Of a DNA stretch of 64,000 nt, positions 2,341 through 52,719 are shown in pieces. Positions within the stretch are counted from its first letter, which is position 1. Every line of letters begins with the position of its first letter. The stretch spans positions 11,700 through 75,699 of the forward strand of contig JBDSUM010000007.1 of the NCBI GenBank assembly GCA_039927695.1. Direction: 5' to 3'. The translations under genes were made by a program, and so were the position numbers. The DNA is from Minisyncoccota bacterium (GTDB lineage Bacteria; Patescibacteriota; Minisyncoccia; Phycocordibacterales; Phycocordibacteraceae). Below the pieces are notes generated by a model. It did not search any database. It was not told the origin of the DNA and was given only the letters and a program-made list of their open reading frames with translations.

Positions 2341-2611
2341 CTATTAATTGATGCCAGACCAGGTGGTGGTGCATAGTCTATGCAAAACGAGCGATTCGTA
2401 GCATGGTCGTGGAGGGCTTAGCAGAACAACCAGACTGCGATATTATGAAGAGGTAATACGGGGCTATGTATTACATCAATATGGCCTAAACCGAGCAATT
2501 GCCCGGCATGGCCGAATAACCGCGACCAGCATAGAAAACCCGTCATCAGGGCGCTGGTCGCGTTATCAGGGGAAACTCTGATATGTCCTTCGGGACTCCT
2601 GGTGGCGGGTT

Positions 2612-3387: not shown

Positions 3388-4878
3388 TTACCAGGAAAGA
3401 TCGCTCCAGTTCATGCTGTAGACACGAGGTACGCTAGGCGGATCTTGAGAGACGCTATGAACGAGGTTTGAGAATGCGTCGGCAAGGTCGTCATGCTTCT
3501 CAACTCCGAAGTGGACTATCTGCTGGATTAACTGCTCAGCTCCTTCTCGAGGGAACACGACTTTTCCGTCTCTGATTGAATTTGCCGTAAGGACAAGACG
3601 ACTTCGCTTATCGGTGGCACCAGGACGGACGGTCTTAACGTTGTGTACGCCTTCTTCCTTCAATTGTTGTGGCAGTGCTTTCTGATACGCTACATCCTCA
3701 ATAATAAAGATAGGGTATCGCTTATCCGATTCGTAGTAACTCTGTTCCAGAATCTTGCACGTATCTACTGTTTCAGGGAAGTTCAGTCGTTTGTTAATGA
3801 TCTTGGGAAGAATATACAACCGATAGCCTCTCTCAAGTTCATAGAGGAGTCCTGGTACCATGGCGGTATAGTCCGCAGTTGCGCTCTTCGAAATCGCTGG
3901 GTCTATACCAATACGCACTTCACGATACGAGGAATAACCGCTTTTGAATCGAATCGGTGGTGGTATCTCGTCGTAGTACTGGATCCATTCGCGGTAAATT
4001 GCTTGGTCGTCGGCTGGGACGATATTCAGCATATATTCGCGCTGCCAGGCGTACTCGTTTCCGGCTCGTCGCTTTTCGTTTTCAATTTCCTCCATATTTG
4101 AGTACTTACCCGGCCATAGGATTTCTCCGTCTTTTGTTACGAGTGGATACTCTTTGAACACGGCGTCGATTGTGTTTTTCTCAACGCGCTCTTTTAAACG
4201 CATAAGAAGCGAATCCTCGTGAAGTAAGTTACCGATAACAACGATACGTGTAGTGCGATCTCCGGTCGGGATAACCTCTCCAGTGAACCATTGGAAGGTC
4301 TTGTCGCGACCTTCGCGCGTCTTCGTGGAAGCGATATCCTCTACGTCGTCTCCAATGATGAGATCAGGGCGATGCTGGTTGTGACGCAAACCACGGATAC
4401 TCTGCTCACTTGAAGCTGCCGTAATGCGTGCGCCGCGCTCGGCAAATACGAGTGAGAACGAACCCCATTCGTCCGCCTCTTCTTTGAATGGCCCTAAATC
4501 ATCCTTCAACATCGAATTATTCTCTAATTCGTTTCGCAAGTTTCGCATATGCTGCTTCGCTTGGCTCTGTGTCTGACAGAGAATCAGCACGAACTTCTTC
4601 TGTTGTTTTCCGAGGATTGCCCAGATAGGATAAGAAGTTGTAATAATTGTAGACTTACTGCTTCCGCGAAACGCGACTACGAACAAGTTTCCGATGTTCT
4701 CGTCTTCAATCAATGAGATCATCTCTGACTGAAACGGAGCAGTCGCGTATTTAACGTAGTGAGCGAAGTAGAAGTGGAAGAAATACCACAGACTATTTTT
4801 AGTGATTGCTATTCGCACTGCTCGATCCTTCATCATCTTCTCTACTAGTTCCGGTGGAAGCATATTTACCTGGTTCAT
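3388..4878 (-). CDS. Phage terminase large subunit
   Basis: Walker A-like FRGSSKST; ATPase + C-terminal RNase H-like nuclease architecture; 496 aa; directly downstream of a small HTH protein. Confidence 0.85.
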   Translation of the reverse strand: MNQVNMLPPELVEKMMKDRAVRIAITKNSLWYFFHFYFAHYVKYATAPFQSEMISLIEDENIGNLFVVAFRGSSKSTIITTSYPIWAILGKQQKKFVLILCQTQSQAKQHMRNLRNELENNSMLKDDLGPFKEEADEWGSFSLVFAERGARITAASSEQSIRGLRHNQHRPDLIIGDDVEDIASTKTREGRDKTFQWFTGEVIPTGDRTTRIVVIGNLLHEDSLLMRLKERVEKNTIDAVFKEYPLVTKDGEILWPGKYSNMEEIENEKRRAGNEYAWQREYMLNIVPADDQAIYREWIQYYDEIPPPIRFKSGYSSYREVRIGIDPAISKSATADYTAMVPGLLYELERGYRLYILPKIINKRLNFPETVDTCKILEQSYYESDKRYPIFIIEDVAYQKALPQQLKEEGVHNVKTVRPGATDKRSRLVLTANSIRDGKVVFPREGAEQLIQQIVHFGVEKHDDLADAFSNLVHSVSQDPPSVPRVYSMNWSDLSW

Positions 4879-10949: not shown

Positions 10950-12449
10950 CTAAGCAGGGCTTGATTCTATACGGTTCGAACTCGAGACGGCCAGCAAAGT
11001 TTCAAAATCAGCATTTTTAGGTGTTAGTGCGAGTAGGTTGTATGGGCTTTTGAATTGTATCTGCGCCATATTTCCATTTTCAATGGTCATGTTCGAAAGT
11101 AGTTTTTGAAGCATTTCTCGCTTTTCTACATCATCAACAAGCAAATACTTTTCTGCGGCTCTACTGCCTTCTATAAACACGTTTTGTATTTGTTCGAAAG
11201 TTACAGCGGCTACTCCATTTTTTGATTCAATTTCGTCTATTTGTTTCTGAAGTTCAACTCGTTTATTAGCTATCTCCTGCATCTTTTCTTGAAAGAGTTC
11301 TTTGCGGATTAAGCCAGAGCCAAAGCCATCAGTGAGACGAGATTCTGCTTCGGAAAGGGAAGCAAGTTCTTTGTTTAAGTTCTCTCGAGCAGAAGCGACA
11401 TAGTCAGTCTTTGTTTGGTAGCGAGTTTTGTATGCTTCACCGCAAATGGAAATAAGCTCCTCATCAAATTTAAGTTCAAGGAACATTTTTGAAAGGAGGG
11501 TATCTATTGCTTCAGAGCGTATGTATTTCTTTTTTTGATCACAACCCTGTTTACCGTTCGTACAATAGTAATACTGATGCCCACGCTGAGTATCGGCAGT
11601 AATGGCGCAACCACAGGATTCGCACCGAAGGTATCCTCGAGCAGAGTAGAAATTTCTTTTAGGCCGTGGGTGCTTACGAGCATGGAGGATGTCATCACAT
11701 GTATTAAAGAGCGAAACTGAAACGATAGCTTTATGTTTCCCAGGGTATACAACGCCATCTCGCTCCATGAGTCCGCAATAGAACTTATTTATAAAGAAGC
11801 GATGTATCTGATTCTTGAATACCTTTCCTCCCGTACGAGTTCGAAGACCTTCCTCATACAAGACCTCTACGATTTGTTGAAGCGTGTAGCCACCAGTCGC
11901 ATAGAGATTAAAAGCACGTACTACATACGGAGATAATTTCTTATCAATTTTGATACTCTTAGTTGCTTTATCATTTAGATATCCAAATGGTGCATGATTC
12001 GGCCATTCTCCCCGAGCTAACTTTTCTCGATTACCACGCTTCACTAGTTCGCTTAGATCACGAACGTACTGCGTAGCCATTGCTTGTTCAATACTCATGA
12101 GAAGAACATTGTCAGAAGGACTATAGTTCCGATCAAAAGTGCGGATGTTCTTTATGTTCCCATTCTGTAGAAGCCATTGAATTTGTCCGCCATCTACAGG
12201 GTTGCGAGTAAGGCGATCAACTTTCCAGCATAGAATAGCATCAGCTTTTCCTTTAGAAATATCTTTAAGCATTTGGTTAAAGATAGGGCGACCAGGTTCT
12301 TTAGCAGAACGACTTTCTCGAAGAGTGGAGACAATTTCTAATCCTTCTCGTTTAGCAACACCAATAAGTTCACGTTCTTGAGATTCAAGCGAAAGAACCT
12401 GCTTGTCTTCAGTATCAGTAGACTTACGGCAATAGAGGATGTACTTCAT
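10950..12449 (-). CDS. Large serine recombinase
   Basis: YCRKSTDTEDKQ catalytic Ser motif; recombinase domain; zinc ribbon CESCGC...YYYCTNGKQGC; coiled-coil C-terminus; 499 aa. Confidence 0.9.
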   Translation of the reverse strand: MKYILYCRKSTDTEDKQVLSLESQERELIGVAKREGLEIVSTLRESRSAKEPGRPIFNQMLKDISKGKADAILCWKVDRLTRNPVDGGQIQWLLQNGNIKNIRTFDRNYSPSDNVLLMSIEQAMATQYVRDLSELVKRGNREKLARGEWPNHAPFGYLNDKATKSIKIDKKLSPYVVRAFNLYATGGYTLQQIVEVLYEEGLRTRTGGKVFKNQIHRFFINKFYCGLMERDGVVYPGKHKAIVSVSLFNTCDDILHARKHPRPKRNFYSARGYLRCESCGCAITADTQRGHQYYYCTNGKQGCDQKKKYIRSEAIDTLLSKMFLELKFDEELISICGEAYKTRYQTKTDYVASARENLNKELASLSEAESRLTDGFGSGLIRKELFQEKMQEIANKRVELQKQIDEIESKNGVAAVTFEQIQNVFIEGSRAAEKYLLVDDVEKREMLQKLLSNMTIENGNMAQIQFKSPYNLLALTPKNADFETLLAVSSSNRIESSPA

Positions 12450-15471: not shown

Positions 15472-16539
15472 ATGCCCAGAATATGGACCGCTGAGGCCGT
15501 TGTCTCAGCGATTAAAACACTTCAAGATAATGGAGAGGCTCTTGATCTAACCTCAATCAACCAAGCTCACCGAAATCTACTTTGGGCTGCTACGAAATAT
15601 CATGGTACCTGGAGAAAGGCTGTTGAGGCATGTGGGATTGAATATTCATCAGTCTCACGAATTGCAATTGATCGCCAGTCCTGGGATAAGGAAAAGATAA
15701 TTGCGACACTGAAGAGTTTGTACGAACAGGGTCTTCCCTTGAATTCCAATTACGTACAGACAAAGCAACAACGTCTCTTTGGTGCTGCAACTAAATATTT
15801 CGGTGGTTGGCCTCAAACAGTGGAAGCTGCTGGTCTGAATTATGACAGGTTGCGAAAGGTAAAACTGCGCAACTGGTCCATAGAAGTAATCATTGAAGCA
15901 GTCATACATAGAGCACACTCCGAGAAATCGATAAGTGGGGCTGTTGTCTATGAAGAAGATAGAGGTCTATATCAAGCAGCTAAAAGACACTTGGGTAAAG
16001 GTGGTTGGGCTAAGGCACGAGTACTTGCAGGTTTCGCTCCAATCGATCCAGATCCCAAAAGGAAATGGACTGAAAAGAGTGTGACTGAAGAGATTCAGCG
16101 TCTTCATGCAAATGGAGTACAGCTTTACACCCAAGCCCTACAACGGAGCGAATTCAGTTATATTCTTGCAGCTGGTCGGAAAGTATTCGGAACATGGGCA
16201 TGCGCAATTGAACGCGCTAGCTTAAATTACGCTGAAATTCGAAAGGGCCGCAAGAACTTCTGGACACGTGAAGAAGTACTCCGAGGAATTAAAGGTCTTG
16301 AGGCGCAAGGTGTCCGCCTTAGTTTAAAGGAAGTAAGAGTTGGTCGTAGTGGTCTTATTGCAGCTGCGATAAAGTATTTCGGTTGCTGGAGTCAAGCGGT
16401 GGAAGCCGCAGGAATTCAGTACCGTTTACATTGCCAGACCTGGTCAACAAAAGCATGGCTGCGTCGCATGCATGTAGATGAATACAACGCGACTCTTGAA
16501 ACTTCACGAACACTTGCTAAGAAAAGGAGAATGCAATGA
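15472..16539 (+). CDS. Tandem-repeat protein (homing-endonuclease-associated-type ~50-aa repeats, no nuclease domain)
   Basis: Five repeats with core a.KYfGsW..AvEaAGi.Y (ATKYHGTWRKAVEACGIEY, ATKYFGGWPQTVEAAGLNY, AIKYFGCWSQAVEAAGIQY and two more). Confidence 0.5.
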   Translation: MPRIWTAEAVVSAIKTLQDNGEALDLTSINQAHRNLLWAATKYHGTWRKAVEACGIEYSSVSRIAIDRQSWDKEKIIATLKSLYEQGLPLNSNYVQTKQQRLFGAATKYFGGWPQTVEAAGLNYDRLRKVKLRNWSIEVIIEAVIHRAHSEKSISGAVVYEEDRGLYQAAKRHLGKGGWAKARVLAGFAPIDPDPKRKWTEKSVTEEIQRLHANGVQLYTQALQRSEFSYILAAGRKVFGTWACAIERASLNYAEIRKGRKNFWTREEVLRGIKGLEAQGVRLSLKEVRVGRSGLIAAAIKYFGCWSQAVEAAGIQYRLHCQTWSTKAWLRRMHVDEYNATLETSRTLAKKRRMQ

Positions 16540-17582
16540 GTATTTCAGCTATCACTAAGCACGGGTTCAAGTTGATTCCGGTTGCTGATATCCAAGAAAC
16601 TGTGGTGCAACTTCGCACCCATTATGCCAATGAGCCTCTTCAAGAACTGGGCAATTCTCTCGAAGATGATGGACTACTTCAGCCCATTGTCGTTGCCCCT
16701 GGTGATGAATTCAAATTCGAACTCATTATCGGCTCACGCCGTCTTCGGGCAGCACGTCATAAGGGTATGGAAGAAATTCCAGCCCTCGTGATTGAGGAGA
16801 CCAGTCCTCTGAATTATCTGCTGATTGCACTCGGCGAGAACCTTCATCGAGAAGACCTGAATCCATTTGAGGAGGCACACGCGTTCCTCCGTCTTATGAA
16901 GGATTACGGGCTTGGTGTGCAGGAAGTAGCCGTAAGAACGCATAAGGGCGAAGCGTTCGTTCGGAAGCGGATGGAATTGCTCAGTATGCCTGAGAATGTT
17001 CAGGCAATGATTGCTGAGAAGAAACTCGCCCTCCACTTCGTCCAAGCACTTGCTCGTTTGCCTACGGGTGAACAACAAGTGTATTACGCGCAGAAAGCTC
17101 TCTCTGAGGGTCTGTCAATCAGCGAGCTTCGGCAGTTGATTACAAGTGACGCGGGCGAGATGGCACCAAGAACAAAGCGGGATTTCTCCGCTGATAAAGT
17201 TCGTGTTCGTATCGATATGTTCGCTCGCTGGATGAAGCGACTCTCGGCGAACAGTGCCTTCAACAGAAGCCTCAATGCAGAAGAACGGGCTGCACTCGCG
17301 CGATCTGTCCAATCTCTGGATGGAGAGCTACGTGTTGCTCGTTCGGTGTTTGGCGAGTGGGTAGGTCGCACACCTGTGCGCTCGATCCCCAATCTGAGCA
17401 ATATCGTTGATGATCCCGATAACCATGGTGACCAGTGGTCACTGCGGCATATCGAAATGATTACCGCCAACGATCGCCCTTCTGACGATATGCTTGCAAC
17501 CAAGCTCGGCAGAAGTGTTGCTGCTATTCGTGGTATGCGATCCAAGATGCAAAGAGAAAGGAAGGATCGAAAAACCGGGTAA
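16536..17582 (+). CDS. ParB-like N-terminal domain protein
   Basis: ParB box LQPIVVAPGDEFKFELIIGSRRLRAARHKG; start overlaps the previous stop (ATGA). Confidence 0.75.
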   Translation: MSISAITKHGFKLIPVADIQETVVQLRTHYANEPLQELGNSLEDDGLLQPIVVAPGDEFKFELIIGSRRLRAARHKGMEEIPALVIEETSPLNYLLIALGENLHREDLNPFEEAHAFLRLMKDYGLGVQEVAVRTHKGEAFVRKRMELLSMPENVQAMIAEKKLALHFVQALARLPTGEQQVYYAQKALSEGLSISELRQLITSDAGEMAPRTKRDFSADKVRVRIDMFARWMKRLSANSAFNRSLNAEERAALARSVQSLDGELRVARSVFGEWVGRTPVRSIPNLSNIVDDPDNHGDQWSLRHIEMITANDRPSDDMLATKLGRSVAAIRGMRSKMQRERKDRKTG

Positions 17583-19255: not shown

Positions 19256-20941
19256 ATGAAACGAAAACCCCAAGTCATTGATTTCTTTTGTGGTGCCGGA
19301 GGCTTCTCCGAAGGCTTTCGTCAGCAAGGGTTTGAAGTCGTTATGGGTATCGATAATTGGTTGCCGGCAATAGAGACACACAACCTTAATCACAATCTTA
19401 ATGACAAGGTTAGAGACGTGCTCGAATTTGGCAACTCGCTTGAAGAAATAAATTCGCTGCCCGATACAGAGGTTATCGTGGGAAGTCCTCCTTGCGTGCT
19501 TTTCTCTCTCTCTAACAAAGGAGGTAAAGCTGATAAGACACTCGGTATTCGATTGATCGAATCCTATCTGCGTGTAATCGCTATAAAAAAGCACCAGCCA
19601 TCGTCGCAACTAAAGGCATGGTTTATGGAGAATGTTCCGAACTCTAGGAACTATATTCGTCCCACCTATACATTTAGCGAGCTGGATCTGACTGAATGGG
19701 CAAGAAATCACGGTTTTGATCCTAATCAGATTGCTCTGAACGGCTCATCAAACGGAATCGTATTAAATACAGCTGAATTTGGTGTCTCTCAAAAACGAGA
19801 ACGTTTTGTGTGTGGTGAGATCATCTCTACGGGCAAGTTCCCGAACCTAGAAAAATTTATGAGCAAGACGTATCGCAGCATTGGAGAGGTAAAAGGAAAG
19901 ATGCCTGCGCCTAATTTGCCGCTATCAAATAAATTATTTTCTGACCCTAATTATCCTTCCACATCTTTTAAGATGAAGGATATGACTGATCATTTCTATG
20001 ATTCAGGTATATATGAAATCCAGTGGAGGAATGCTCAATATCTAAAGGTAAATCATCCCTTCATGGGAAAGATGTCCTTTCCTGAAGACGAGAAGAACCC
20101 GAGCCGTACTATCATGGCAACCCGTTCAATGACCACACGAGAATCTCTAATATACAAATCAGAATATAGTCGACGAGGAGATGGGGAATACAGATTACCT
20201 ACTATACGCGAGATAGCAACTCTCATGGGTTTTCCATACTCGTATCAATTCTCAGGAGCGGAGAATACAAAATGGAGACAGGTTGGTAATGCCGTTTGTC
20301 CTCCTATGAGTTCAGCTCTTGCCAAGAGCGTAAGACTATCTATTGGATTAAGTGTAATTCCCGTTTCAAAAATTACCTTCAATTCTCTTAAGGGTAAGCT
20401 AGACAGGATTCAGAACATAAATACTTTCTCTGAAAAGAAATTTAATGATCCGCCAAAAAGGAAACTAAATGCGCGTTTCCGAAGGCATCCTTTTAAGGAT
20501 GGTAATATGACGGTTGCTTTAACGAACTTTAATCCGGTATCTCCAATCGATTCTCCTGAAGTCACAGAGTGGTATTCATCTGTATTCATGGGCTCTGGTA
20601 AAGACTTTACTATTAAAATTCTCACTAAGAGTCAATTCAAAGAAATTGCTAAATTTATTGAAGTAAATAATAAGGACTTGAGTACAAAATTTACTCAGGA
20701 ATTTAATGAAAAGTTTAAAGCTGTTATTGGTAATACTCACAAGTTTCAAGAAGCCTACGTGTTAGAAAACTCTCGCTTGCCTCATGAGCCTGGACGTTTG
20801 GTAGATGAAATTAGTGACTTCATACGCGCGTTTGATTCAACGGAAAAACACATGCAAATTCCAGATTTTCTTCCAGGAAAGAATCTGTTACCTATCCGAC
20901 AAGTCCTCGCCATGTACGCTCTCAATAGACTTGTGTCGTAA
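19256..20941 (+). CDS. DNA (cytosine-5)-methyltransferase
   Basis: Motif I FFCGAGGFSEGF; motif IV GSPPCVLFS (PC); motif VI ENV (WFMENVPN); motif VIII QKRERF; long C-terminal target-recognition region. Confidence 0.9.
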   Translation: MKRKPQVIDFFCGAGGFSEGFRQQGFEVVMGIDNWLPAIETHNLNHNLNDKVRDVLEFGNSLEEINSLPDTEVIVGSPPCVLFSLSNKGGKADKTLGIRLIESYLRVIAIKKHQPSSQLKAWFMENVPNSRNYIRPTYTFSELDLTEWARNHGFDPNQIALNGSSNGIVLNTAEFGVSQKRERFVCGEIISTGKFPNLEKFMSKTYRSIGEVKGKMPAPNLPLSNKLFSDPNYPSTSFKMKDMTDHFYDSGIYEIQWRNAQYLKVNHPFMGKMSFPEDEKNPSRTIMATRSMTTRESLIYKSEYSRRGDGEYRLPTIREIATLMGFPYSYQFSGAENTKWRQVGNAVCPPMSSALAKSVRLSIGLSVIPVSKITFNSLKGKLDRIQNINTFSEKKFNDPPKRKLNARFRRHPFKDGNMTVALTNFNPVSPIDSPEVTEWYSSVFMGSGKDFTIKILTKSQFKEIAKFIEVNNKDLSTKFTQEFNEKFKAVIGNTHKFQEAYVLENSRLPHEPGRLVDEISDFIRAFDSTEKHMQIPDFLPGKNLLPIRQVLAMYALNRLVS

Positions 20942-20985
20942 TTGACAAAAGGCTCAAATGCAGGGAATATGATGATTAAGACTGC

Positions 20986-22413
20986 ATGAACAAAGCCACT
21001 CGAAGTCAGAAGATTGGGGAAATCACTGCTGGCGAACCCTACGGCAAGCAAGATATTCTCTGGCATGGAAAGCTCGTGTCAATGAACGTATATGAGATTC
21101 CTCTCGAGTATTTGATTTACAACAGGTACAACGGACGAATTCTTAGTCGAACAAAGACTCTTGAAAAGCAGGGACGGGATATAAATCCTGAATCCGATGA
21201 GGGCAAGAAGCTCATCGAGAATCTTCTTTGGAAATCCAAGGAATCGAGAAACGATATCACTATGAAAGATATCTCCGATAAGGGTCAATTGAAGATTGGT
21301 ATTGTAACCAAAGATGGAATCGTTATCGATGGAAATCGGCGCTTGATGCTTCTTAACAGAATTAAAAAGCATCGCCACTTTAAAGCAGTAGTTCTTCCTG
21401 TCGCCCTTGAAGATGATCCTATTGAGATTGAGAAGCTGGAGACAACATACCAAATGGGTGAGGATGAGAAGCTCGGCTATAACCCAATCGAGAAGTATCT
21501 CAAAGCAAAACAAATCTATAAGAAGCTTACAGAGCAAGAAACTCACGATGATGCCATAAAGCAGATTGCTGAATGGATGGGGGAGGAAAAAGGAGTTATT
21601 GAAGACTGGCTAGAGGTAGTCAAAATGATAGATGATTATCTCGAGTATCTAAAGTACGACGGGATATACTCCATGGCTGACACTCCAAACGACGGTAAGG
21701 AAGACCTCTTCTTGTATATAAAGAAATGGCTAAATACTTTCCACGATAAAGAGTCTAATAAAGGATTCGATGGGTACAGCCAAATGGATGTAGATGATCT
21801 TAAACAAATTTCTTTTGACTATATTCGCGCTAAGATTGGAAAATCCTATGATGGAAAACAGTTTCGTTACATCGCTGATGGTCAAAAGCAGAAACATTTC
21901 TTTGGAGACAAGAAACTGTGGGCTAGTTTTAGCGAAGATCACTTTGCGGCAGTTACCCCCGCAATCGAAAAGATAGATTTTGAATATCCAATTGATTATA
22001 ACTCTGAAAATATTGAAGCATCTCTCTCAAATAGAGATGCAAAGTTCAGAGATGAGGTATTGGATGTTCTGACAAAGAATATTGAAGAACATGTGACAGA
22101 CCTCGGCTATGCTGAAGCTGCTGATAAACCTCTCAAGCTCGTAAGTAATGCGCGAAAGGCTATTGAATCTATTGATCAAAAGCACAAAGCCTTCTCAGCG
22201 CCTGAAGTCATTGAGCAGGTTGAAGAATTGATCCAGACTCTCATAGGAATGCTAAAGAAGAAGTCTCCTGAGGAAACGGTCTCTTTAGTTGCGAATCTGC
22301 TCGAATCTCTTGAATTGAATTCGGGATCGATTGACAAGGAAGGTATGCTCGAAAAGGTAAAGGAAATATCGCGTCTAGCTTATCAAATTGAGAAAGACGT
22401 TAAATCGCTGTGA
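20986..22413 (+). CDS. ParB/Srx-fold (ParB-like nuclease domain) protein
   Basis: GQLKIGIVTKDGIVIDGNRRLMLL matches the ParBc core; rest unrecognised; 475 aa. Confidence 0.55.
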   Translation: MNKATRSQKIGEITAGEPYGKQDILWHGKLVSMNVYEIPLEYLIYNRYNGRILSRTKTLEKQGRDINPESDEGKKLIENLLWKSKESRNDITMKDISDKGQLKIGIVTKDGIVIDGNRRLMLLNRIKKHRHFKAVVLPVALEDDPIEIEKLETTYQMGEDEKLGYNPIEKYLKAKQIYKKLTEQETHDDAIKQIAEWMGEEKGVIEDWLEVVKMIDDYLEYLKYDGIYSMADTPNDGKEDLFLYIKKWLNTFHDKESNKGFDGYSQMDVDDLKQISFDYIRAKIGKSYDGKQFRYIADGQKQKHFFGDKKLWASFSEDHFAAVTPAIEKIDFEYPIDYNSENIEASLSNRDAKFRDEVLDVLTKNIEEHVTDLGYAEAADKPLKLVSNARKAIESIDQKHKAFSAPEVIEQVEELIQTLIGMLKKKSPEETVSLVANLLESLELNSGSIDKEGMLEKVKEISRLAYQIEKDVKSL

Positions 22414-22425
22414 TAATGAATATTC

Positions 22426-24402
22426 ATGAGCCAATCTATAAATATTCATACAGATAACGAGAGACATAGTTTCTATTTAACAGGTAATATCCCAGAGTTA
22501 CTTGCGAATTCTAGACTGCTTTTCTCGCTCAAGAGATTACAATACACCCCTCACGAAGAGGGAATGTTAGTACCATTTGAAGATAAGACTAAAATTAAAG
22601 TTCTCCAAGAGATTCAAATGCTCATGGAGAAGTTTTCTTTCGATGTTGAACTTTCGATAGAAACCAAGAAAGATGTTTCTAGCTTTGATCGTGAGCAACA
22701 GACATTTAAGGAATTCTCAGAGAAGGCACGAGATATCCGTAACAATCGGTTCAAGGATGAACCTGAGTTAGTTGTAGACTTCGATTCCTTTCAGAAGGCA
22801 TTAAAGGATAAAATCGTACGTCCTTTATATCCTCTGCAATTATTGTCTGCTTTTCACATGGCTTTCTCGCAAAATGCTTGTAATTTTGCAGTGCCAGGTG
22901 CAGGAAAGACCTCAATTGTTTACGGTGCGTATACCTACCTAAAAAGTCTTCCTACTGATCATCCTAAACACGTCGACAAGCTTCTTGTGATTGGCCCGCT
23001 TTCATCTTTCGCGCCGTGGGAAAATGAATATGAGGCTTGTTTTGGTGAAAAGCCCACCTCGCAAAGATTGTCAGGGGACGATAAGGTTTTGCGTAATCAT
23101 AAGGAGCAACACCTTTTTTCGAGTAATCCTGCTGAACTAACCCTTATATATCATGGAGGTGTTGTTCATCTTCAAAATGAAATACTTTCTTTTCTAAAGA
23201 GAAATAAGACTATGGTGGTAGTTGACGAGGCACACCGAATTAAGAATCCTGAGGGTGTATGGGGCAAGAGCGCCGTAGAGATTTCAAAAGAAGCGGTCTC
23301 CAGAATCATTCTTAGCGGTACACCAGTTCCCAATGGCTATGAGGATTTATTTAACTTATTCCAATATCTATATCCGTATCGCTATAAGGACATACTACAT
23401 TTCCACTACGATAATTTAGTTGAAATGACCAAAACAGCTTTGCCCGATAGCGATCGAGTAAAGCAATTCATAGATAATATCTCACCTTACTTTATACGTA
23501 TTAAAAAGTCTGATCTTAAATTGCCTCCAGTTAAGGAGAATAACGTAATGGTTGATATGGATTCTCACCAAAGAGAAATCTATGATTTTATTGAGACAAA
23601 ATACATACGTTCCTTTGAAAATAGTAATACGGCGGCAGCAAAAGATGTCTTAAATAAAGCGAAATTAATTCGTTTAAGACAGGCAGCTACAAATCCCTCT
23701 CTGCTCCTTAAGCCCATAGTAGAAACCCTCTATGCTGACGACTACGAATCAAGAATCTCTATAGGCGGACGTATGCCTGAAGAATTTCAAGATGATTCAG
23801 AGATACTCTCAAAGATATATAACTATCAGAAGGTAGAGACCCCTAAGAAATTCTATGAAATTAAGAAGTTGTTAGAAGAAAAAATCCTTGCAGGTAATGG
23901 TAAGGCAATTATTTGGACGATATTCATACAGAATGCCAAACAACTTCAAGAGTATCTAATGGAGAATGGTATTCCGATTCGTCTACTTATTGGAGAGGTT
24001 GAACAATCAGAGAGGGAGGTAATTATCACAAAATTCAATGATCCGAATGACAGTGATTTTCAGGTAATCATCGCAAACCCATTTGCCGTGTCAGAGTCTA
24101 TATCTCTGCATAAGGGATGTCACAACGCTATTTACATGGAGCGTGATTATAACTGTTCTAACTTCCTTCAATCAAAAGATCGTATACACCGATATGGCCT
24201 AGCGGACAATCAAGAGACTAATTATTACTATTTCTTATCACAAGATTCTATTGATGGAGTCATTCACGATAAATTAGAGGAGAAGGTCAAGAGAATGGAA
24301 AGAATTATCGATGAAGAAATACCACTTTTCGCTCGACTTAATGACTCTGACGAAACAGATTTGATAACAGCTCTTATAGACGATTATGCTAAAAGAGCTT
24401 GA
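22426..24402 (+). CDS. SNF2-family helicase/translocase
   Basis: Motif I PGAGKT; motif II DEAHRIKN; motif III LSGTPVPNGYEDLFNLFQYL; helicase-C motif VI SKDRIHRYG. Confidence 0.85.
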   Translation: MSQSINIHTDNERHSFYLTGNIPELLANSRLLFSLKRLQYTPHEEGMLVPFEDKTKIKVLQEIQMLMEKFSFDVELSIETKKDVSSFDREQQTFKEFSEKARDIRNNRFKDEPELVVDFDSFQKALKDKIVRPLYPLQLLSAFHMAFSQNACNFAVPGAGKTSIVYGAYTYLKSLPTDHPKHVDKLLVIGPLSSFAPWENEYEACFGEKPTSQRLSGDDKVLRNHKEQHLFSSNPAELTLIYHGGVVHLQNEILSFLKRNKTMVVVDEAHRIKNPEGVWGKSAVEISKEAVSRIILSGTPVPNGYEDLFNLFQYLYPYRYKDILHFHYDNLVEMTKTALPDSDRVKQFIDNISPYFIRIKKSDLKLPPVKENNVMVDMDSHQREIYDFIETKYIRSFENSNTAAAKDVLNKAKLIRLRQAATNPSLLLKPIVETLYADDYESRISIGGRMPEEFQDDSEILSKIYNYQKVETPKKFYEIKKLLEEKILAGNGKAIIWTIFIQNAKQLQEYLMENGIPIRLLIGEVEQSEREVIITKFNDPNDSDFQVIIANPFAVSESISLHKGCHNAIYMERDYNCSNFLQSKDRIHRYGLADNQETNYYYFLSQDSIDGVIHDKLEEKVKRMERIIDEEIPLFARLNDSDETDLITALIDDYAKRA

Positions 24403-25360
24403 GCAATATGAGAACCTTGGCACGCCAGCGTTCTTTGCAGAGTTATTTAACCAACTCCACGGAGCAGAACTCCCTTGGACGTCTAGCCACGTAAGAGGTT
24501 ATTTTTATAACAGGATTGTAGATGACAATTCTGTCTTTGATGGCTGTCTTACCTTAGTTGAAGCCATTGGTGCAGTGACCATCGATAGCGGTGGAAACAT
24601 CACACTAAACCCTTCTTTGGTGCCAATGCTCGTAAACGAGAGATACCTTGCGAACAAGTTACTTGAGATGCTATTGGCTGTAGTAAAGGAAGATGAAATT
24701 TTTCATGAAATATTCTGTCCCAAGAATCTCTCATACGACATTATATATAAACTGATTCAAATTGATGGTTCAGCTTTTCGATTCCGCTATGCTAGTTTTA
24801 GGCAATTGCTGGTAAGTTTTGAATTCTTATACCCTCATCCTGAGAAGAGCATCAGAAAATATATAGTTAATTCAAGGTATAAGAAGCTGTTTGATCAACA
24901 GATTTTACCTGAAATACGTCAGCGTAAACTTGGCATTGAAGAACTCGAGGCTCTTCTAGAAAGGAAACAAATCTATGGAGAACAGGCAGAATCATATGCC
25001 CTCGAATATGAAAGAAAAAGATTGGCCAAACATTCAAGTTTGGGCAATGTTGAATTGATTTCTGGATATGATGTCGCCGCAGGATATGATTTGATCTCCT
25101 ACGAAGATGAATCTTCAACAGAGCTCGATCGGTTTATAGAAGTAAAATCCTTTTCAGGTACTCCAAGCTTTCATTGGTCACGCAATGAAATAGATGTCTC
25201 AAGACTAAAAGGGAAGAGATATTTCCTCTATTTAATAAATAGAGACGAAATGGCAAATTCAACCTATGTTCCTACAATCATACAGAATCCCTACGATGAA
25301 GTATTGTCGGATGATAGTTGGACGAAGCGTGTAGATAGTTATTTTATAATTAAGAACTAG
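24386..25360 (+). CDS. DUF3883-like (predicted PD-(D/E)xK nuclease-related) C-terminal domain protein
   Basis: GYDLISYEDESSTELDRFIEVKS resembles the DUF3883 core; overlaps the SNF2 stop (operon). Confidence 0.45.
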   Translation: MLKELEQYENLGTPAFFAELFNQLHGAELPWTSSHVRGYFYNRIVDDNSVFDGCLTLVEAIGAVTIDSGGNITLNPSLVPMLVNERYLANKLLEMLLAVVKEDEIFHEIFCPKNLSYDIIYKLIQIDGSAFRFRYASFRQLLVSFEFLYPHPEKSIRKYIVNSRYKKLFDQQILPEIRQRKLGIEELEALLERKQIYGEQAESYALEYERKRLAKHSSLGNVELISGYDVAAGYDLISYEDESSTELDRFIEVKSFSGTPSFHWSRNEIDVSRLKGKRYFLYLINRDEMANSTYVPTIIQNPYDEVLSDDSWTKRVDSYFIIKN

Positions 25361-25606
25361 GTCTTAGTGATACCACTTTTTCCTTCAGTTCAATTTTCCC
25401 GCGTAGACAACCGAGCAGTTCTCTTTTCTCCATATCTTTTCCTTCGCGTAATAGATACTTTGCATAAGCTCTTATATCAATCTCCTGAACGTGTTTATCA
25501 GATAAGGCCATATCAGCTATGCTAGGGCTAAAAATGGGACGCCAATCCTTAATGGGGAGGCGTGTCCCATTTGTCTCATTTTGCGATAAGCGTATAGTTT
25601 GGCTAT

Positions 25607-25955: not shown

Positions 25956-25977
25956 GTTCGAATCCCAGACAGCCAGC
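25956..25977 (+). repeat. Conserved intergenic repeat, copy 5 (internal 6-nt deletion)
   Basis: gttcgaatcccagacagccagc. Confidence 0.55.
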
Positions 25978-26059
25978 ATTTTAGAAAAGTATCGAAGGAC
26001 CTAGAGGGGTCGGTTTGGGACTAAGTGCTTTAGAGTGAATTTTCTATATAATTCTAGTT

Positions 26060-28768
26060 ATGAATAGACTGGATAGTGAAATACTAACGATCGATACAGC
26101 CATCTGTGAAAATATCGATAAATTCCACGCCTCAGAAAGAGGTCTTTTGTCGCAGAATATCTTGGCTCAGCTTAGGAATTTTGTTGAGCATATCGCCCTA
26201 AAAGAAGAATCAAACGGACAAGACATTGATTTTACATTTGAAGATTTAAAGAACGCGCCTAATAGAATACAACCGAAGGGATCGCTGGCATACTTGAGGA
26301 GATTTCATAATTTTTTACAAGGAGTGGCCTCACACTATACGCAGAGCAAAGAAAACTCAGAACGCCTAATGCTGAAATACTATGAGTATTTAATCAGGAT
26401 TAAATCCCGTCTTAAGAACACCTATGGCTTAGAGGTGCTAAGTAATATTGATAAGTTCCCAACAAATACGGATCCTGCCTTGCAGGAATATTACGAAAAG
26501 ATAGTGGAGAAAATCGAACGCCCAACAAAAGCGAGAAGGGTCAGTCCTTATAGTGATCGGTACTATATCCAGAAGATCAAACCATTTTTTGTTAAGCACG
26601 AAATATACTACGAAGTCACTTTTACAATTGCGAGCGCTCAAGTTAGTAAATTTGATAGAGTCATCGCTTTTACCAAGCTAGATATTTCCGATAATTACGC
26701 CGTTAAACTTTCCGTAATACATGACGATATTGAGGTCTTGGGCAAAAAGATGCCTATTCACATCATTGATAAATGGGAGGTTTCTGTTCGACCTTGCGAG
26801 CTTAACAACTTTAGTCGCATTTTGGGTGAGAATGTAGATATTCAATCAAAGAGTACGGAATACAAAAACCTGATGAGTTTTTTGACAGAGACTAGTCTAA
26901 GTTTCGTTGAGCTTATCGATCTCTCTGATGATTACTATGATGCTGCGAAAAGCCGTATCGCTCAGGGGGTACAAGCAATACACTTCCTAACTGTCTTAGA
27001 TAAGGCAAAGGCCTTGGTTAGGGGTAATGAAGTTGGTACTAACGTGGTGAGATATTTACTGCGATCTTTAAACAATAGGATTATAAAGCTACAACGAAGT
27101 CGCTATGGCGGGTACAAACTTCGAGAAGATTTAGGCTTCAATCTTGGATGTAAGCCGTTCGATACAATGCCTTTCAACTCCTCACTGATAGGACACAACC
27201 CAAAGATTTCAGATGTTTTTGAGTGTATTAGTGCAGCAGATCGAGAGCATGAACTTTTTGCAAGACTAATTAAGGACAATACAGAAAATAAAGGAAAACT
27301 ATATACGCCTGTAGAAGGTTTACCTCAGACAAAGGAAGAGATTGCAGAGCTAGTCGCTACTTACAACGCTGAGCTTTACTACAAGCACACACATCGCAAG
27401 TTAGAAAACTTTAGAGATTTTATTTATATAAACGGTTATGAAAAAGATACTTTAGACATAATTAAAAGACTCAAAGAGTTGTCATCAGGTGGGATAAACA
27501 ACTATTCGAATTCTGTAGATTCGTGGCTGAAGTCGTCCGCATATCAAATTGACTGCGAAGATAAGGAAAGGATTCTAAGACAGATGTTTACAGATTCTGA
27601 AGTGGCATTGATATACGGTGCAGCTGGTACTGGAAAATCAACGTTGATAAACCACATATCAAACTTTTTCAACGAGAATCAGAAGCTCTACTTAGCCAAT
27701 ACCAATCCCGCCATTGATAACTTGAAGAGAAAAGTTAACGCATCAAATAGCACCTTTCAGACGGTTGCTAAATTCCTATCGCATCGAAATACCGAAACAG
27801 AATTCGATCTCCTTATTATTGATGAGTGCAGCACCGTTAGTAATAAAGATATGATTGATGTTTTGAATAAGGCAAAGTTTAAATCCCTTATATTGGTTGG
27901 TGATGTATTCCAGATAGAATCGATAATATTTGGAAACTGGTTTAATGTTGCAAGATCCTTTGTGCCAAAAACGGCGGTATCCGAACTAACAGTTCCTTAT
28001 CGGACTACGAATCAAGAACTGATTAAATTTTGGAACAGAGTTAGAAATCTTGAAGACAATATTCTTGAAAGCATGACGAGGAATGGTTATACCACCGTCT
28101 TAAATGAATCCATTTTTGAGACCCTAGAGGACGATGAAATTATTCTCTGTTTAAATTACGACGGTCTGTACGGCATAAACAATTTAAACAAGTTTCTTCA
28201 GGGTAGTAATGAAAATGTTCTTGTGCATTGGGGCATACAAACTTACAAGATTGGTGACCCTGTTCTCTTTAACGAAACAGATCGATTTGCGCCAATAATC
28301 TATAACAACCTAAAAGGCCGAATTGTTGGTATAGATAAATCTGAAGATCAGATCCAATTTGATATTGAGATAGATAAGGCAATAAATGAATTGCAAGCAT
28401 CAGGCTATGATTTTGAATTGGTCGGGAGTGCTGCAAACGGGAATTCAGTAGTCAGATTCTTGGTTAGCAAGCAAGGAGACACGGACGAAGATGATGAGCC
28501 GCTAGATTCAGTGGTCCCATTTCAAGTCGCCTATGCTGTGTCAATTCATAAGGCTCAAGGTCTAGAATACGGTTCTGTGAAGGTTGTGATTACGAATGAA
28601 AGCGAAGAGATGATCACTCATAACATTTTTTACACAGCCATAACTAGAGCTAAGGAGAAACTTAAAATATATTGGACGCCTGAAGCAGAGAAAAAAGTAT
28701 TAAGTGGTTTTAAGAAGCTAGATGCGACAGAAGATGTCGGACTTCTGTCCTCGAAGCTCACCTCATAA
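26060..28768 (+). CDS. SF1 helicase (RecD/Pif1-like, AAA_30 + UvrD_C_2) with ~500-aa uncharacterised N-terminal domain
   Basis: Walker A GAAGTGKST; Walker B LLIIDECS; VGDVFQ motif III; C-terminal VSIHKAQGLEYGSV...FYTAITRAKEKL. Confidence 0.8.
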   Translation: MNRLDSEILTIDTAICENIDKFHASERGLLSQNILAQLRNFVEHIALKEESNGQDIDFTFEDLKNAPNRIQPKGSLAYLRRFHNFLQGVASHYTQSKENSERLMLKYYEYLIRIKSRLKNTYGLEVLSNIDKFPTNTDPALQEYYEKIVEKIERPTKARRVSPYSDRYYIQKIKPFFVKHEIYYEVTFTIASAQVSKFDRVIAFTKLDISDNYAVKLSVIHDDIEVLGKKMPIHIIDKWEVSVRPCELNNFSRILGENVDIQSKSTEYKNLMSFLTETSLSFVELIDLSDDYYDAAKSRIAQGVQAIHFLTVLDKAKALVRGNEVGTNVVRYLLRSLNNRIIKLQRSRYGGYKLREDLGFNLGCKPFDTMPFNSSLIGHNPKISDVFECISAADREHELFARLIKDNTENKGKLYTPVEGLPQTKEEIAELVATYNAELYYKHTHRKLENFRDFIYINGYEKDTLDIIKRLKELSSGGINNYSNSVDSWLKSSAYQIDCEDKERILRQMFTDSEVALIYGAAGTGKSTLINHISNFFNENQKLYLANTNPAIDNLKRKVNASNSTFQTVAKFLSHRNTETEFDLLIIDECSTVSNKDMIDVLNKAKFKSLILVGDVFQIESIIFGNWFNVARSFVPKTAVSELTVPYRTTNQELIKFWNRVRNLEDNILESMTRNGYTTVLNESIFETLEDDEIILCLNYDGLYGINNLNKFLQGSNENVLVHWGIQTYKIGDPVLFNETDRFAPIIYNNLKGRIVGIDKSEDQIQFDIEIDKAINELQASGYDFELVGSAANGNSVVRFLVSKQGDTDEDDEPLDSVVPFQVAYAVSIHKAQGLEYGSVKVVITNESEEMITHNIFYTAITRAKEKLKIYWTPEAEKKVLSGFKKLDATEDVGLLSSKLTS

Positions 28769-28787: not shown

Positions 28788-30110
28788 TTAAATTATATCC
28801 ACACGTTTGTTGTTTAGGACTATTTTACTCTTCAGACACGTCAATAAATCTCGCTTCTCAAACATCGATCCTTCGGTCAGAAGATACTTTGCATAGTTCC
28901 TGATGTCGGCTTCCTTTGCATAATAGATTTCTTCGGCTTTGCCCATGATGCCGGAGTGGAACTTCTTGTGCCGTTCAATCTCGGCCTCCAGTTTCTTCTT
29001 GATGCCTGAATGATCAAGGTCGACTTGGTCGATGATTTCTGTTAGTTGGTTGATGAGAATCTTCTCTTCGATATACCCCTCCTTGCAATTGATGTCTTTG
29101 GATCGGGTGCAGCCGTAGTAAATATACTTTGCAATTGAACCGTCCTTGAGGTTTTTAAACTTCTCCTGGGCAGTTACGCCTGAACCGCACGCTCCGCAGG
29201 AGAGGAGTCGAGTAAAGGCAAACTCCTTGTTCTTATTTGGCGCGCGGATTTGAAGATGGAGTTGTTTCTGGACGGCATCGAATAATTCCTTAGATATGAG
29301 CGGTGCATGCTTTCCCTGGAACCATCGTCCGCTTGTTTTCGGATACTCAAACGAACCGTGATAGAAGTGGTTGGCCAGAATAACGTAGACATTGCTCAAA
29401 GTGAGAGGCTTTCCGGTTCTTGTGACGAACTTAATATCCTTGAGCCACCTGTATACCTTACGGCCACTCCATCCCTCGTTCGCTACTTTCTGGAAGAGTT
29501 CCTTGATAATCGGTGCTCGGTCGGGATCTATGAACACGACACCCTTCTGATCCTTATTCTTGGAGTTGAGGTATCCAGTTGGCGCTACTGACGGCCAGAG
29601 ACCCATTTCGCATTTGGTCTTGAGGCCGCGCTTTACGTTAATACTCTTGTTGTCGTTCTCAAGCTTGGCTTGGGAGCCAAGAATCATGAGGAGAAACTTC
29701 TCGTTCGGATTGTTGGTGAAGCGTTGGCTGTAGGTACGGATTTCTATGAGTTTCTTCTGATCGAGGAGGTCTACTACTGCACCGAGGTCTCCCGCATTTC
29801 GAGCTAGGCGGTCAGGATGCCAGACGAGGATGCCGTTAAACTTTCCCTCGCGGATATCGAGAAGCAGTTTGTTGTATACCGGTCGCTGTCCGGCATCCTT
29901 TGCGGAATGTGACTCTCGATACATATCCACCACGTTCAACCCATCTCGCTGAGCTACGGCCAACATCTCGTTTAGTTGGGAATCTATGGAGAGTGCCTGC
30001 TTCTCTTCAGCTTCGCTCGATTTACGGGCGTACAGGCAATACCTGACGGGTTCCTGCTCCTGGAGGCCGGGAATAGTTATATTCGCTCCATATGCTGTTG
30101 CGGTTTCCAT
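28788..30110 (-). CDS. Large serine recombinase (paralogue of 714..2033)
   Basis: YCLYARKSSEAEEKQ catalytic motif; roughly three-quarters identical by eye to the 714..2033 protein over the catalytic domain; zinc ribbon CGACGSG...YYGCTRSKDINC. Confidence 0.9.
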   Translation of the reverse strand: METATAYGANITIPGLQEQEPVRYCLYARKSSEAEEKQALSIDSQLNEMLAVAQRDGLNVVDMYRESHSAKDAGQRPVYNKLLLDIREGKFNGILVWHPDRLARNAGDLGAVVDLLDQKKLIEIRTYSQRFTNNPNEKFLLMILGSQAKLENDNKSINVKRGLKTKCEMGLWPSVAPTGYLNSKNKDQKGVVFIDPDRAPIIKELFQKVANEGWSGRKVYRWLKDIKFVTRTGKPLTLSNVYVILANHFYHGSFEYPKTSGRWFQGKHAPLISKELFDAVQKQLHLQIRAPNKNKEFAFTRLLSCGACGSGVTAQEKFKNLKDGSIAKYIYYGCTRSKDINCKEGYIEEKILINQLTEIIDQVDLDHSGIKKKLEAEIERHKKFHSGIMGKAEEIYYAKEADIRNYAKYLLTEGSMFEKRDLLTCLKSKIVLNNKRVDII

Positions 30111-31479: not shown

Positions 31480-32583
31480 ATGAAAATAGAACTACATAAA
31501 ATCAAAGTGCGTGAAGTGGTCGATGGCTACAAAGATAGTCACGAGGAAGGCGTCGTGGCGTATGGCGGCAAACTTGATGTTCGTCCAAAATATCAGCGCG
31601 AATTCGTCTACAAAGACAAGCAACGTGATGCGGTTATCGATACTGTCAGACAAGGATTTCCTCTTAACGTTATGTACTGGGTACAAAGTGGAGAAGGCAG
31701 TTTTGAGGTGCTAGATGGACAACAGCGAACAATCAGTATTGGTCAATATGTAAACGGAGATTTCTCAGTTGATTTCAGTGGACGAACAGCAATGTTCCAT
31801 AACCTCACCAAAGAAGAACAGGAGCAGATTCTCAACTATGAGTTGATGATCTATTTTTGTGAAGGAACCGATAAAGAAAAGCTCGATTGGTTCAAGATTA
31901 TTAACATCGCTGGAGAGCGTCTTACGGATCAGGAATTACGCAACGCCGTCTACACCGGCCCATGGCTTTCAGATGCGAAACTCAAGTTCAGCAAATCCAA
32001 TTGTGCCGCGTATCTTTTGGCGAACGACGGTGGTGCATTACTTACTGGCTCACCAATTCGGCAAGAATATTTGGAAACTGCACTGGACTGGATAAATAAC
32101 GCCGAAGTTGCTGAGTATATGGCAAAACATCAGCACGACAAAAACGCTAACGAATTATGGGAGTATTTTCAAAATGTAGCTGAGTGGGTACGGAAAACAT
32201 TTCCCAATTACCGCAAAGAGATGGCGAATGTTAATTGGGGTGAGTTGTATAACGAATTTAAGGATAGGAAGCTTGACGCTAAAAATCTAGAATCCGAAGT
32301 TGCAGAATTGATGCAGGATGAGGACGTAACAAAGAAATCAGGTATTTACCCTTACACACTCACTAGGCAAGAACGGCATCTTTCGATACGCGCTTTCAAC
32401 GATAAGATGAAGCGTGAAGCTTATGAGAGACAGAAGGGTATCTGCGTAAAGTGTGGAAAGCACTTTGAAATCGAAGAGATGGAAGCGGATCATATAACCC
32501 CATGGCACGAGGGTGGTAAAACGACAGCACAAAATTGTCAGATGCTGTGCAAGCAAGATAATCGAACCAAGTCAGATAAGTAA
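31480..32583 (+). CDS. DUF262 (ParB-like, DGQQR) + C-terminal HNH nuclease; GmrSD-like type IV restriction enzyme family
   Basis: YQREFVY...[12 protein letters not shown]262 signature; C-terminal CVKCGK...[32 protein letters not shown] motif. Confidence 0.8.
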
Positions 32584-32588: not shown

Positions 32589-33866
32589 ATGAATGAGATT
32601 ATCTGCCCACACTGCAAAAAGGCTTTCAAAATAGACGAGGCAGGTTTTGCCGATATCTTAAAGCAAGTTCGCGACCATGAGTTTGAGAATGAACTTCATG
32701 AGCGTGCGGAGTTATTTGAGAAGGATAAGGAAAGCGCGGTCAAACTTGCGGAAGCTAATCTCAAGAACACACTACAAGCAGATCTCGCAAGAAAGGAGGC
32801 TGAGCTAGTTCAGTTGGAGGCGAATAAGGATCGCGAACTTGCCGAGCTTGAAGCAAAAAAAGAAGCAGAGATTGCTGAGGTGAAATCAAAGATAAGTAAT
32901 GCAGATCTCGAGAAGAAACTTGCCGTCACTGAAGCGGTAAATAAGATTGAGAAAGAACGTGATGAACTTGCTGGTGAGCTAAAAATTAAAGATACGGAGA
33001 AGCAATTGCTCGAGACATCTCTAAAAGATAAATACGCAACTGAGCTTAAGACCAAGGACGACATCATTAAGATGAAAGACGAAGAAATTGCTCTTCGTAA
33101 GGACATGAAGGTAAAACTCTCAACCAAAATGGTTGGCGAAACACTAGAGCAGCACTGTGAGACTGAGTTTAATAAGCTCCGTGCGACTGGTTTTCAAAAC
33201 GCATATTTCGAAAAAGATAATGATTCGACGAGCGGCAGTAAGGGTGACTACATATACCGTGAGACTGACGAATCTGGAAACGAGATTATATCCATCATGT
33301 TCGAAATGAAGAACGAAGGTGATGAGACTGCTACCAAGAAAAAGAACGAAGATTTCTTAAAGGAACTTGATAAGGATCGTACCGAGAAAAAGTGTGAGTA
33401 CGCCGTTCTCGTTACACTTTTGGAGTCGGAGAATGAACTGTACAACACTGGAATTGTTGATGTATCTCACAAATATCCAAAAATGTATGTGGTTCGTCCG
33501 CAATTTTTCATTCCTATAATCACGTTACTACGTAACGCAGCTATGAACTCGCTTAAATATAAAGCCGAGCTTGCTGTAGTAAAGAATCAAAATATCGACA
33601 TCACCAACTTTGAGGAAAATATAAGTAAGTTCAAAGAGGCGTTTGGTAAAAACTATCAACTTGCTTCTAGTAAATTTAAGACAGCAATCGAAGAGATAGA
33701 TAAAACTATCGATCATCTTCAGAAAACTAAAGACGCACTCCTGTCTTCTGAAAACAATCTTCGACTTGCTAATAATAAAGCAGAGGATTTGACGATCAAA
33801 AAGCTTACGAGAGGAAACCCTACAATGCAGGCAAAGTTTGACGAGCTTCCTGATGCGGACAAATAG
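32589..33866 (+). CDS. DUF2130-family coiled-coil protein
   Basis: N-terminal [23 protein letters not shown] then a long coiled-coil; architecture as in DUF2130. Confidence 0.55.
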
Positions 33867-52587: not shown

Positions 52588-52719
52588 ATACGACTCTTCC
52601 GCCATTCACTTTGTTACCGTGATGGCAGATTGTATTCACTATTCCTTCATGAAAGGATAGATATTTGCAACCTTTTATCCACAGGGGTCTATCGTGCTTT
52701 CTTTGCTATAGTTTTGGTA

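Follow-up and report, generated by a model that had tools for sequence, protein, structure and literature searches.

The gene at positions 26060..28768 (+) of a 64,000-nucleotide stretch of DNA from a Minisyncoccota bacterium (the window) encodes a 902-amino acid (aa) helicase that, judged by its sequence, is a member of PDC-S53, an already catalogued family of defence candidates. A PADLOC search, which the original prediction had recommended, returned a full-length match to the PDC-S53 model (PDLC05035; E = 0, 1307 bits), in which aa 1-900 align with profile positions 1-894 of 900. The same model is matched by 47 of 47 diverse sequences aligned over the first N-terminal domain (domain 1), and the window protein, a single gene matched over its full length, shows no structural difference from the family. 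Our favoured reading, which we hold tentatively, is that the protein is a single-gene defence against phages or other invading replicons, acting by the mechanism proposed below; we consider it moderately probable that the PDC-S53 family is a real defence system. The immunity role first suggested for the gene, in a defence island, thus gains from the full-length match and from the defence-rich neighbourhoods of the homologs, while the analogy to Nhi-like proteins and a functional link to the neighbouring recombinase are not supported.

The PDC systems are 145 phage defence candidates that Payne et al. added to PADLOC (bioRxiv 10.1101/2024.01.29.577857), predicted from genes embedded in type I restriction-modification (R-M), BREX or DISARM loci (bioRxiv 10.1101/2024.01.29.577857). 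The literature that we searched holds no mention of PDC-S53 or a renamed equivalent, and the string does not occur in the available supplements of the source paper; likewise, we found in that literature no published PDC-S53 function, domain dissection or anti-phage test. The studies that assayed PDCs left out PDC-S53; in one of these, four of eight PDC/HEC candidates protected E. coli.

The C-terminal half is a complete SF1B helicase motor

The open reading frame (ORF) starts with ATG and is complete, and every helicase motif quoted in the original prediction is found in its translation: GAAGTGKST at aa 520-528 (the Walker A motif, 27617-27643, +), IIDECS at aa 586-591, VGDVFQ at aa 613-618, IHKAQGLEY at aa 829-837 and TRAKEKL at aa 862-868. 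Walker A, Walker B and motifs III, V and VI of an SF1B helicase are all intact, and K526, D588, E589, D615, Q618, R648 and R863 are invariant or nearly so among 109 diverse homologs, with K526, D588, D615, R648 and R863 identical in all 109 sequences. Pfam matches are restricted to aa ~502-677 (Viral_helicase1, AAA_30 and AAA_19) and aa 824-873 (UvrD_C_2, 824-869), and aa 1-500 have no Pfam match at all. Searches of Pfam, NCBIfam and PHROGs with the full protein gave helicase families only, and a phmmer search of PDB sequences gave RecD2, RecD and Pif1 and nothing else, all in the C-terminal half.

The structure of the full-length protein was predicted with AlphaFold2, giving a good model with a predicted local distance difference test score (pLDDT) of 80.7 and a predicted TM-score (pTM) of 0.78. 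Compared with the PDB by Foldseek, the full model matches RecD2 (3gpl, E 5.9e-19) and the RecD of RecBCD (6sjb, E 1.9e-17), and also Pif1 and Dda; as these are the best PDB matches, we assign the motor to SF1B. The SF1B (RecD2/RecD/Pif1/Dda-type) core, delimited by Pfam and Foldseek, spans aa ~501-880 (27560..28699, +). It is preceded by a linker or N-terminal accessory region that is RecD2-N-like (aa ~381-500; 27200..27559, +) and can be aligned with the part of the RecD2 model that precedes the motor core. The motor fold and motifs are the same as those of Deinococcus radiodurans RecD2 (3gpl/3e1s) and E. coli RecD. However, the alignment with the RecD2 profile TIGR01448 (aa 395-770 against profile positions 205-623) scores 129.2 bits against a cut-off of 500, and the protein is therefore not a RecD2 orthologue; unlike RecD2, it has a family-specific N-terminal module of ~400 aa and it is sporadic and mobile rather than housekeeping. 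The description of the protein as a stand-alone SF1(B) helicase with a large additional N-terminal module is borne out. A scan for promoters and terminators around the gene gave a number of sites not above chance.

Structure prediction resolves three folds in the N-terminal half

The original prediction had called aa 1-500 unrecognised, but HEPN-like, OB and winged-helix folds are resolved there by structure prediction, and the N-terminus is thus not unrecognisable. Domain 1 (aa 1-153; 26060..26518, +) is predicted to be a HEPN-like helical bundle, domain 2 (aa ~160-241; 26537..26782, +) a five-stranded OB-fold-like beta domain, and domain 3 (aa ~245-380; 26792..27199, +) a helical, winged-helix-like region. 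In domain 2, the residues Y169, Y184, E185, K197 and Y213, mostly aromatic or basic, are conserved, as are the motifs SIRPCE (aa 242-247) and GCIPFDxMPF (aa 363-372) in domain 3. The OB-fold structural matches are PriB, SSB, RPA, MCM-N, RecO and Rim1 (values from 7.0 to 7.7), and the winged-helix matches are ScpB (8.2) and the ROQ domain of Roquin (7.5). Relative to the literature searched, this fold-level dissection of the N-terminal half is new.

The relationship of domain 1 to HEPN proteins has evidence on both sides. The structural matches to domain 1 are of HEPN type, led by Csx1-Crn2 (8y7f, 9.3 over 113 residues) and the HEPN toxins 8xdj and 5yep (8.6), followed by YutE (8.0), HI0074 (7.9), TTHA0636 (7.8), Csm6 (7.2), AbiA (7.2) and HepT (7ae2, 6.8). 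Across the 47 sequences of the domain-1 alignment, R39, H92 and Y107 do not vary, and they are kept in 107-108 of the 109 homologs; S91 and R102 are nearly invariant, and the conservation of these five residues reaches down to ~30% identity. In the position of the canonical HEPN motif, at the beginning of helix 97-122, stands R102-x4-Y107, which lacks the His of the motif; H92 lies ten residues upstream. In a census of HEPN domains, the AbiV and AF0298 variants lack the motif His and have a second conserved His N-terminal to the motif (PMC3710099), and by analogy a variant HEPN site using the invariant H92 is possible in PDC-S53. The same census reports HEPN domains fused independently to SF1 helicases in R-M contexts (PMC3710099).

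A number of observations weigh against placing domain 1 among the HEPN RNases, including HepT/SO_3166, Csx1, Csm6 and the AbiV/AF0298-type proteins. The conserved Rx4-6H at the start of core helix 4 is absent from domain 1. The segment R39-N-F-V-E-H44 does resemble the canonical motif, but it lies in helix 2 rather than in the last core helix, and H44 is kept in just 40 of 109 homologs. A profile of aa 1-158 found no HEPN protein among PDB sequences, and the members of the domain-1 profile, compared with Pfam and PADLOC at permissive thresholds, gave neither HEPN nor any other recurrent family; neither a sequence-profile relationship nor Foldseek support links the domain to these RNases, since the N-terminal model had no significant Foldseek match in the PDB. 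No nuclease of a recognised class was found, and neither a PD-(D/E)xK nor a Vsr nuclease was detected by Pfam or fold comparison. Because the evidence for and against HEPN both stand, we call the predicted domain 'HEPN-like', with a possible variant of the active site, and stop short of assigning it to the HEPN superfamily.

In concept, the architecture is that of Nhi, Hhe and Hna, in which an SF1 helicase and an additional N-terminal module form one polypeptide in defence contexts. The original prediction had offered Nhi as the analogy; no Nhi family is among the 13 PADLOC matches at E ≤ 0.01, and with neither a match to an Nhi model nor a nuclease Pfam domain, Nhi-like identity was rejected. 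Hhe was rejected as well, its model matching within the helicase only (E 0.0017, 15.8 bits against a cut-off of 2000). Dna2 likewise has an OB-fold and additional domains in front of its SF1B motor. It gives a weak whole-length alignment with the full model (E ~4e-10) and a marginal one with the N-terminal model (E 0.06), with TM-scores of 0.2-0.25. Membership in Dna2 was rejected on these low TM-scores and on the lack of a PD-(D/E)xK nuclease and an Fe-S cluster domain in the window protein.

The two-part architecture is fixed and widely but patchily distributed

A word-indexed search returned 4144 relatives, the best 120 of which are 59-100% identical to the window protein and 897-951 aa long, except for one 800-aa entry; the names among these 120 include Paceibacterota, Moraniibacteriota, Magasanikbacteria, Kaiserbacteria, Peregrinibacteria, Virgibacillus and Clostridium beijerinckii. 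The closest homologs are in a 'Saccharibacteria' metagenome-assembled genome (MAG; 91% identity) and a Paceibacterota MAG (79%). An exhaustive search with aa 1-490 found 923 representative clusters, and the best 150 of these 923 all have the same ~900-aa layout or are apparent fragments. The N-terminal module and the helicase are therefore a fixed architecture; no other architecture sharing the N-terminal module occurs among the best 150 of 923, and there is thus no clue from domain shuffling.

When one genome per species was scanned (about 186,000 species in all), at least 573 loci were found, the best 80 of which are at least 50% identical. These 80 loci come from Patescibacteria, Gamma-, Alpha- and Epsilon-proteobacteria, Desulfobacterota, Bacteroidota, Bacillota and Actinomycetota, and also from Elusimicrobia, Synergistota, Melainabacteria, Mycoplasmataceae and a Nanoarchaeota MAG. 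High identity together with this patchy distribution points to horizontal transfer.

Homologs lie in accessory, defence-rich neighbourhoods with no conserved partner

We clustered the genes within ±4 positions of the helicase, all against all, in the best 80 loci. No neighbour family is present in more than 10 of the 80, and PDC-S53 thus has no obligate partner in these loci, consistent with its designation as a single-gene system. The most frequent neighbours are large serine recombinases and HsdR (10 of 80 loci each), followed by HsdM (7), an ABC-F ATPase (5), and HsdS, Schlafen/AlbA_2, ParB-MTase (a ParB-N6_N4 methyltransferase fusion) and tyrosine integrase (4 each). Type I R-M genes are found in 13 of the 80 loci, typically in the order hsdR-hsdM-hsdS-helicase on one strand (L024 and L079), and a recombinase or integrase is nearby in another 13.

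The accessory and defence-rich context expected for the gene is evident in these loci, as homologs lie beside or inside type I R-M operons and near other defence genes. In L006 the homolog stands between hsdS and hsdR, and in L066 it has HsdR on both sides; embedding in type I R-M is seen in these homologs and not for the window copy. The homologs in L003 and L004 are flanked by Vsr/PLD/PemK genes and type I R-M. Among 144 directly adjacent ORFs, PADLOC identified components of type II R-M systems and the specificity and restriction subunits of type I systems, as well as LmuB, SoFic, AriA, PtuA and MADS, so that homologs adjoin Lamassu, PARIS, Septu and SoFic genes. Other settings also occur: the homologs in L002 and L009 are in a metabolic neighbourhood, and the C. 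beijerinckii copy is in a prophage- or satellite-like integrative element with replication genes. Conjugation genes were found in none of the contexts examined.

Full-length copies are present in two of 50,697 phage records, those of Erysipelothrix phage phi1605 and Terrisporobacter phage TPDSL_ph1, each copy sharing about 48% identity with the window protein. In each (L007 6146-10009 and L008 6146-10013, respectively), the helicase gene is part of a three-gene cassette with a 278-aa protein and an HTH_26 regulator, which opposes the transcription of the adjacent replication module and adjoins R-M genes. The 278-aa protein has no Pfam match, is 83% identical between the two phages, and is absent from the window and the loci L001-L006. 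The 278-aa protein and the helix-turn-helix (HTH) regulator are a lineage-specific cassette that may be a multi-gene variant of the system.

The gene forms a mobile cassette within an accessory array rich in recombinases

In the window, the gene is a mobile cassette, composed of a D1-like element, the helicase and a recombinase 3' end, in a recombinase-rich accessory array. This follows from the copies of two repeats (D1 and D4), a block shared with the homologous locus L009, a recombinase-gene remnant and the variable placement of recombinases in related loci. On one side of the gene is a four-gene methyltransferase (MTase)/SNF2/NOV_C operon; on the other come a serine recombinase and a type II R-M system. 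The recombinase (28788..30110, -) is a large, CcrB-like protein of 440 aa with the Pfam domains Resolvase, Recombinase and Zn_ribbon_recom; its gene is convergent to the helicase gene and lies 19 nucleotides (nt) downstream. The adjacency on which the original prediction remarked is thus real, but the functional link is not: recombinases 54-64% identical to this one are found near the helicase in five Patescibacteria loci, in variable position and orientation. Recurring in Patescibacteria loci only and with variable placement, the recombinase was rejected as a functional partner; it is a mobility neighbour.

The segment 26047..28892 (+) is colinear with L009 9988-12833, which holds the 91%-identical homolog, at 86% nucleotide identity. 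The shared block consists of the helicase gene and the last ~35 codons of the convergent recombinase, its flanks are unrelated, and it ends at a D4 repeat (28869-28895). D4 is a 27-nt repeat found at 798, 25440, 28869 and 36473, inside recombinase 3' ends, where it encodes YAKYLLxEG. From the block end at D4, there may be a recombination site inside the recombinase 3' end. The D4 copy at 25440-25466 is contained in the remnant of a recombinase gene (25365..25532, -), which retains the last 56 codons at 48% aa identity. The window has three large serine recombinases in all (714-2033, 10950-12449 and 28788-30110, each on the - strand) and this one C-terminal remnant.

The D1 repeat (TTGTTCGAATAyCGTCCCAGACGGCCAGC, ~30 nt) has nine copies, at 15237, 18272, 19076, 35361, 35892, 36138, 36450, 37534 and 38420, all intergenic and on the + strand, and an inverted copy at 4003-4027. 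Its 20-nt core has seven matches at ≤3 mismatches where none is expected, and the copies at 19076 and 35361 bracket a 16-kb block that holds the helicase gene; the array is indeed delimited by repeats, as had been proposed. A degenerate copy (GTTCGAATCCCAGACAGCCAGCA) lies at 25956-25978 (+), ~80 nt upstream of the helicase ATG, and a D1-related element is also found upstream of the helicase homolog in L009. This degenerate relative was the only one found in the other loci compared, which have no exact D1 copy. D1 may mark cassette junctions, serve in recombination or have a regulatory role. It holds a short hairpin (CCGTC-CCA-GACGG) and sits just upstream of many + strand accessory ORFs; its core, GTTCGAATCC, resembles a tRNA T-arm, and tRNA genes are absent from the window. 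The cassette movement of the gene in Patescibacteria is new relative to the literature searched.

A proposed defence mechanism and its alternatives

We infer immunity, a single-stranded DNA (ssDNA) ligand, the polarity of the helicase and an RNase activity, and our favoured reading joins these as follows. The OB/winged-helix module and the motor would load on ssDNA of the invader's replication or recombination intermediates, and ATP-driven translocation would proceed 5'->3', as in RecD2. Translocation would then be followed either by direct disruption of the intermediates or by activation of the N-terminal bundle as an effector, possibly a variant HEPN RNase using the invariant H92 with R102/Y107 and R39. 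Growth arrest, or a failure of the phage to replicate, would be the outcome. Taken alone, a catalytic RNase role for the N-terminal bundle is doubtful.

The most specific form of this proposal, a translocating sensor-effector in which the RecD2-type motor and the OB-fold read invader ssDNA and switch on a non-canonical HEPN-type RNase, and which Patescibacteria shuffle as integron-like defence cassettes through large serine recombinases, we regard as quite improbable. If it were true, the system would be retained near-unchanged from Patescibacteria and DPANN archaea to Firmicutes and Proteobacteria, and its cassette in ultra-small genomes would consist of the D1 element, the gene and the site in the recombinase 3' end. 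DARNA offers a functional analogy, as ssDNA sensing is there coupled to a HEPN effector in one protein: its HEPN tRNase is activated by ssDNA presented by the phage SSB (bioRxiv 10.64898/2026.02.22.705581). However, DARNA has a Pds5-like helical C-terminal domain and neither a helicase nor an OB-fold, and there is no evidence of homology.

If the protein is a defence, the helicase could be its sole effector, with N-terminal domains that are non-catalytic (binding, oligomerisation or autoinhibitory) and immunity arising from the unwinding or stripping of phage intermediates. We judge this rather unlikely, although several points speak for it: the canonical Rx4-6H is not conserved, domain 1 has no HEPN signal at the sequence level, HEPN domains without the motif may be binding domains (PMC3710099), OB and winged-helix folds are binding modules, and in proteins of Dna2/RecD-type architecture, OB domains precede an SF1B motor. 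Against these stands the conservation of R39, H92, Y107, S91 and R102 across distant homologs, which argues for a specific catalytic or ligand-binding site rather than a mere scaffold. The main rival to a defence function holds that the protein is a Dda/RecD2-like replication, recombination or repair helicase of mobile elements or prophages, which hitch-hikes into defence islands because such islands are built from mobile elements. Consistent with this, PHROG 325 ('Dda-like helicase') matches aa 4-879, a match that is uninformative on the function of the N-terminus; the full-length copies in the two temperate phages lie beside primase, polymerase and exonuclease genes; the C. beijerinckii element carries replication genes; recombinases or integrases lie near 13 of the 80 loci; and the strong conservation of the sequence is in keeping with an enzyme that serves the element in a housekeeping-type role. 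However, the phage cassette is moron-like, with its own HTH regulator, an orientation opposed to the replication genes and R-M flanks, many chromosomal copies are appended to or embedded in type I R-M operons without replication genes of an element, and full-length copies are as rare among phage records as noted above. We rate the mobile-element helicase, too, as an unlikely explanation.

Two other explanations carry very little weight. A conjugative relaxase-helicase (TraA/TraI/MobA-like) or plasmid replication protein, which the original prediction had named as the finding in the N-terminal domain that would refute it, is effectively refuted: weak NCBIfam matches to TraA_Ti, TraA and TraI exist, but they cover the helicase core alone (aa 468-652), at 18-57 bits where the cut-offs are 590-1317, Pfam finds no relaxase or Rep domain, the N-terminal folds are HEPN-like, OB and winged-helix with no relaxase or replication-initiator domain among them, and the contexts examined lack conjugation genes. 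A role as the housekeeping RecD2 orthologue of the genome is also highly improbable; RecD2 does give the best NCBIfam and PDB matches, but the score is far below the equivalog cut-off, the N-terminal 400 aa are different and family-specific, and the distribution is sporadic, with cassette-like transfer.

If PDC-S53 is an immune system, as our favoured reading has it, it would be among the more widespread single-gene helicase defences, with a range that includes bacteria of the candidate phyla radiation (CPR) and a DPANN archaeon. Few defences are recognised in CPR bacteria and DPANN archaea. The family has until now existed just as a database name; the domain dissection gives it concrete residues for point mutation and a mechanism that can be tested. 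If PDC-S53 is not a defence, it is an ordinary mobile-element helicase. We consider the gene a good, concrete candidate for experiment, and one that will not surprise specialists.

Other features of the window

Upstream of the helicase gene, a tightly packed four-gene operon at 19256-25360 (+) encodes a C5 cytosine MTase (561 aa), a 475-aa protein without a match in Pfam, PADLOC, NCBIfam or PHROGs, an SNF2 helicase (658 aa; ZorD/DrmD/DpdE-like) and a NOV_C/DUF3883 protein (324 aa; matching TmtA and PD-T4-1). The operon looks like an R-M-like or novel multi-gene defence system. On the other side of the cassette, a + strand operon consists of an EcoRI-like adenine MTase (29976/30237-31478), a GmrSD_N+HNH protein (31480-32583), which matches a PADLOC type II restriction endonuclease model (E 1.6e-146), and a DUF2130 protein (32589-33866). 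The 500-aa, TTG-start ORF of the adenine MTase, part of which overlaps the gene for the recombinase, probably extends too far; in the public annotation, the gene product has 413 aa and the start is at ~30237 of the window. The accessory array opens (15472-17582, +) with genes for an HNH_repeat protein (355 aa) and, after it, a ParB_N/HTH_ParB protein (348 aa).

A match to the Rfam LOOT RNA (RF03000) at 2483-2597 (+) is above the gathering score (69.8 bits, E 4.6e-11); it is flanked by a small ORF and a 239-aa ORF, with a serine recombinase nearby. The 1293-aa protein encoded at 52630-56511 (+) has a PG_binding_1 domain, repeated FN3 or purple-acid-phosphatase-N-like domains and a C-terminal GDSL lipase, and is probably a cell-surface enzyme; its gene contains 82-nt DNA repeats at 53482, 54346, 54925 and 55210.

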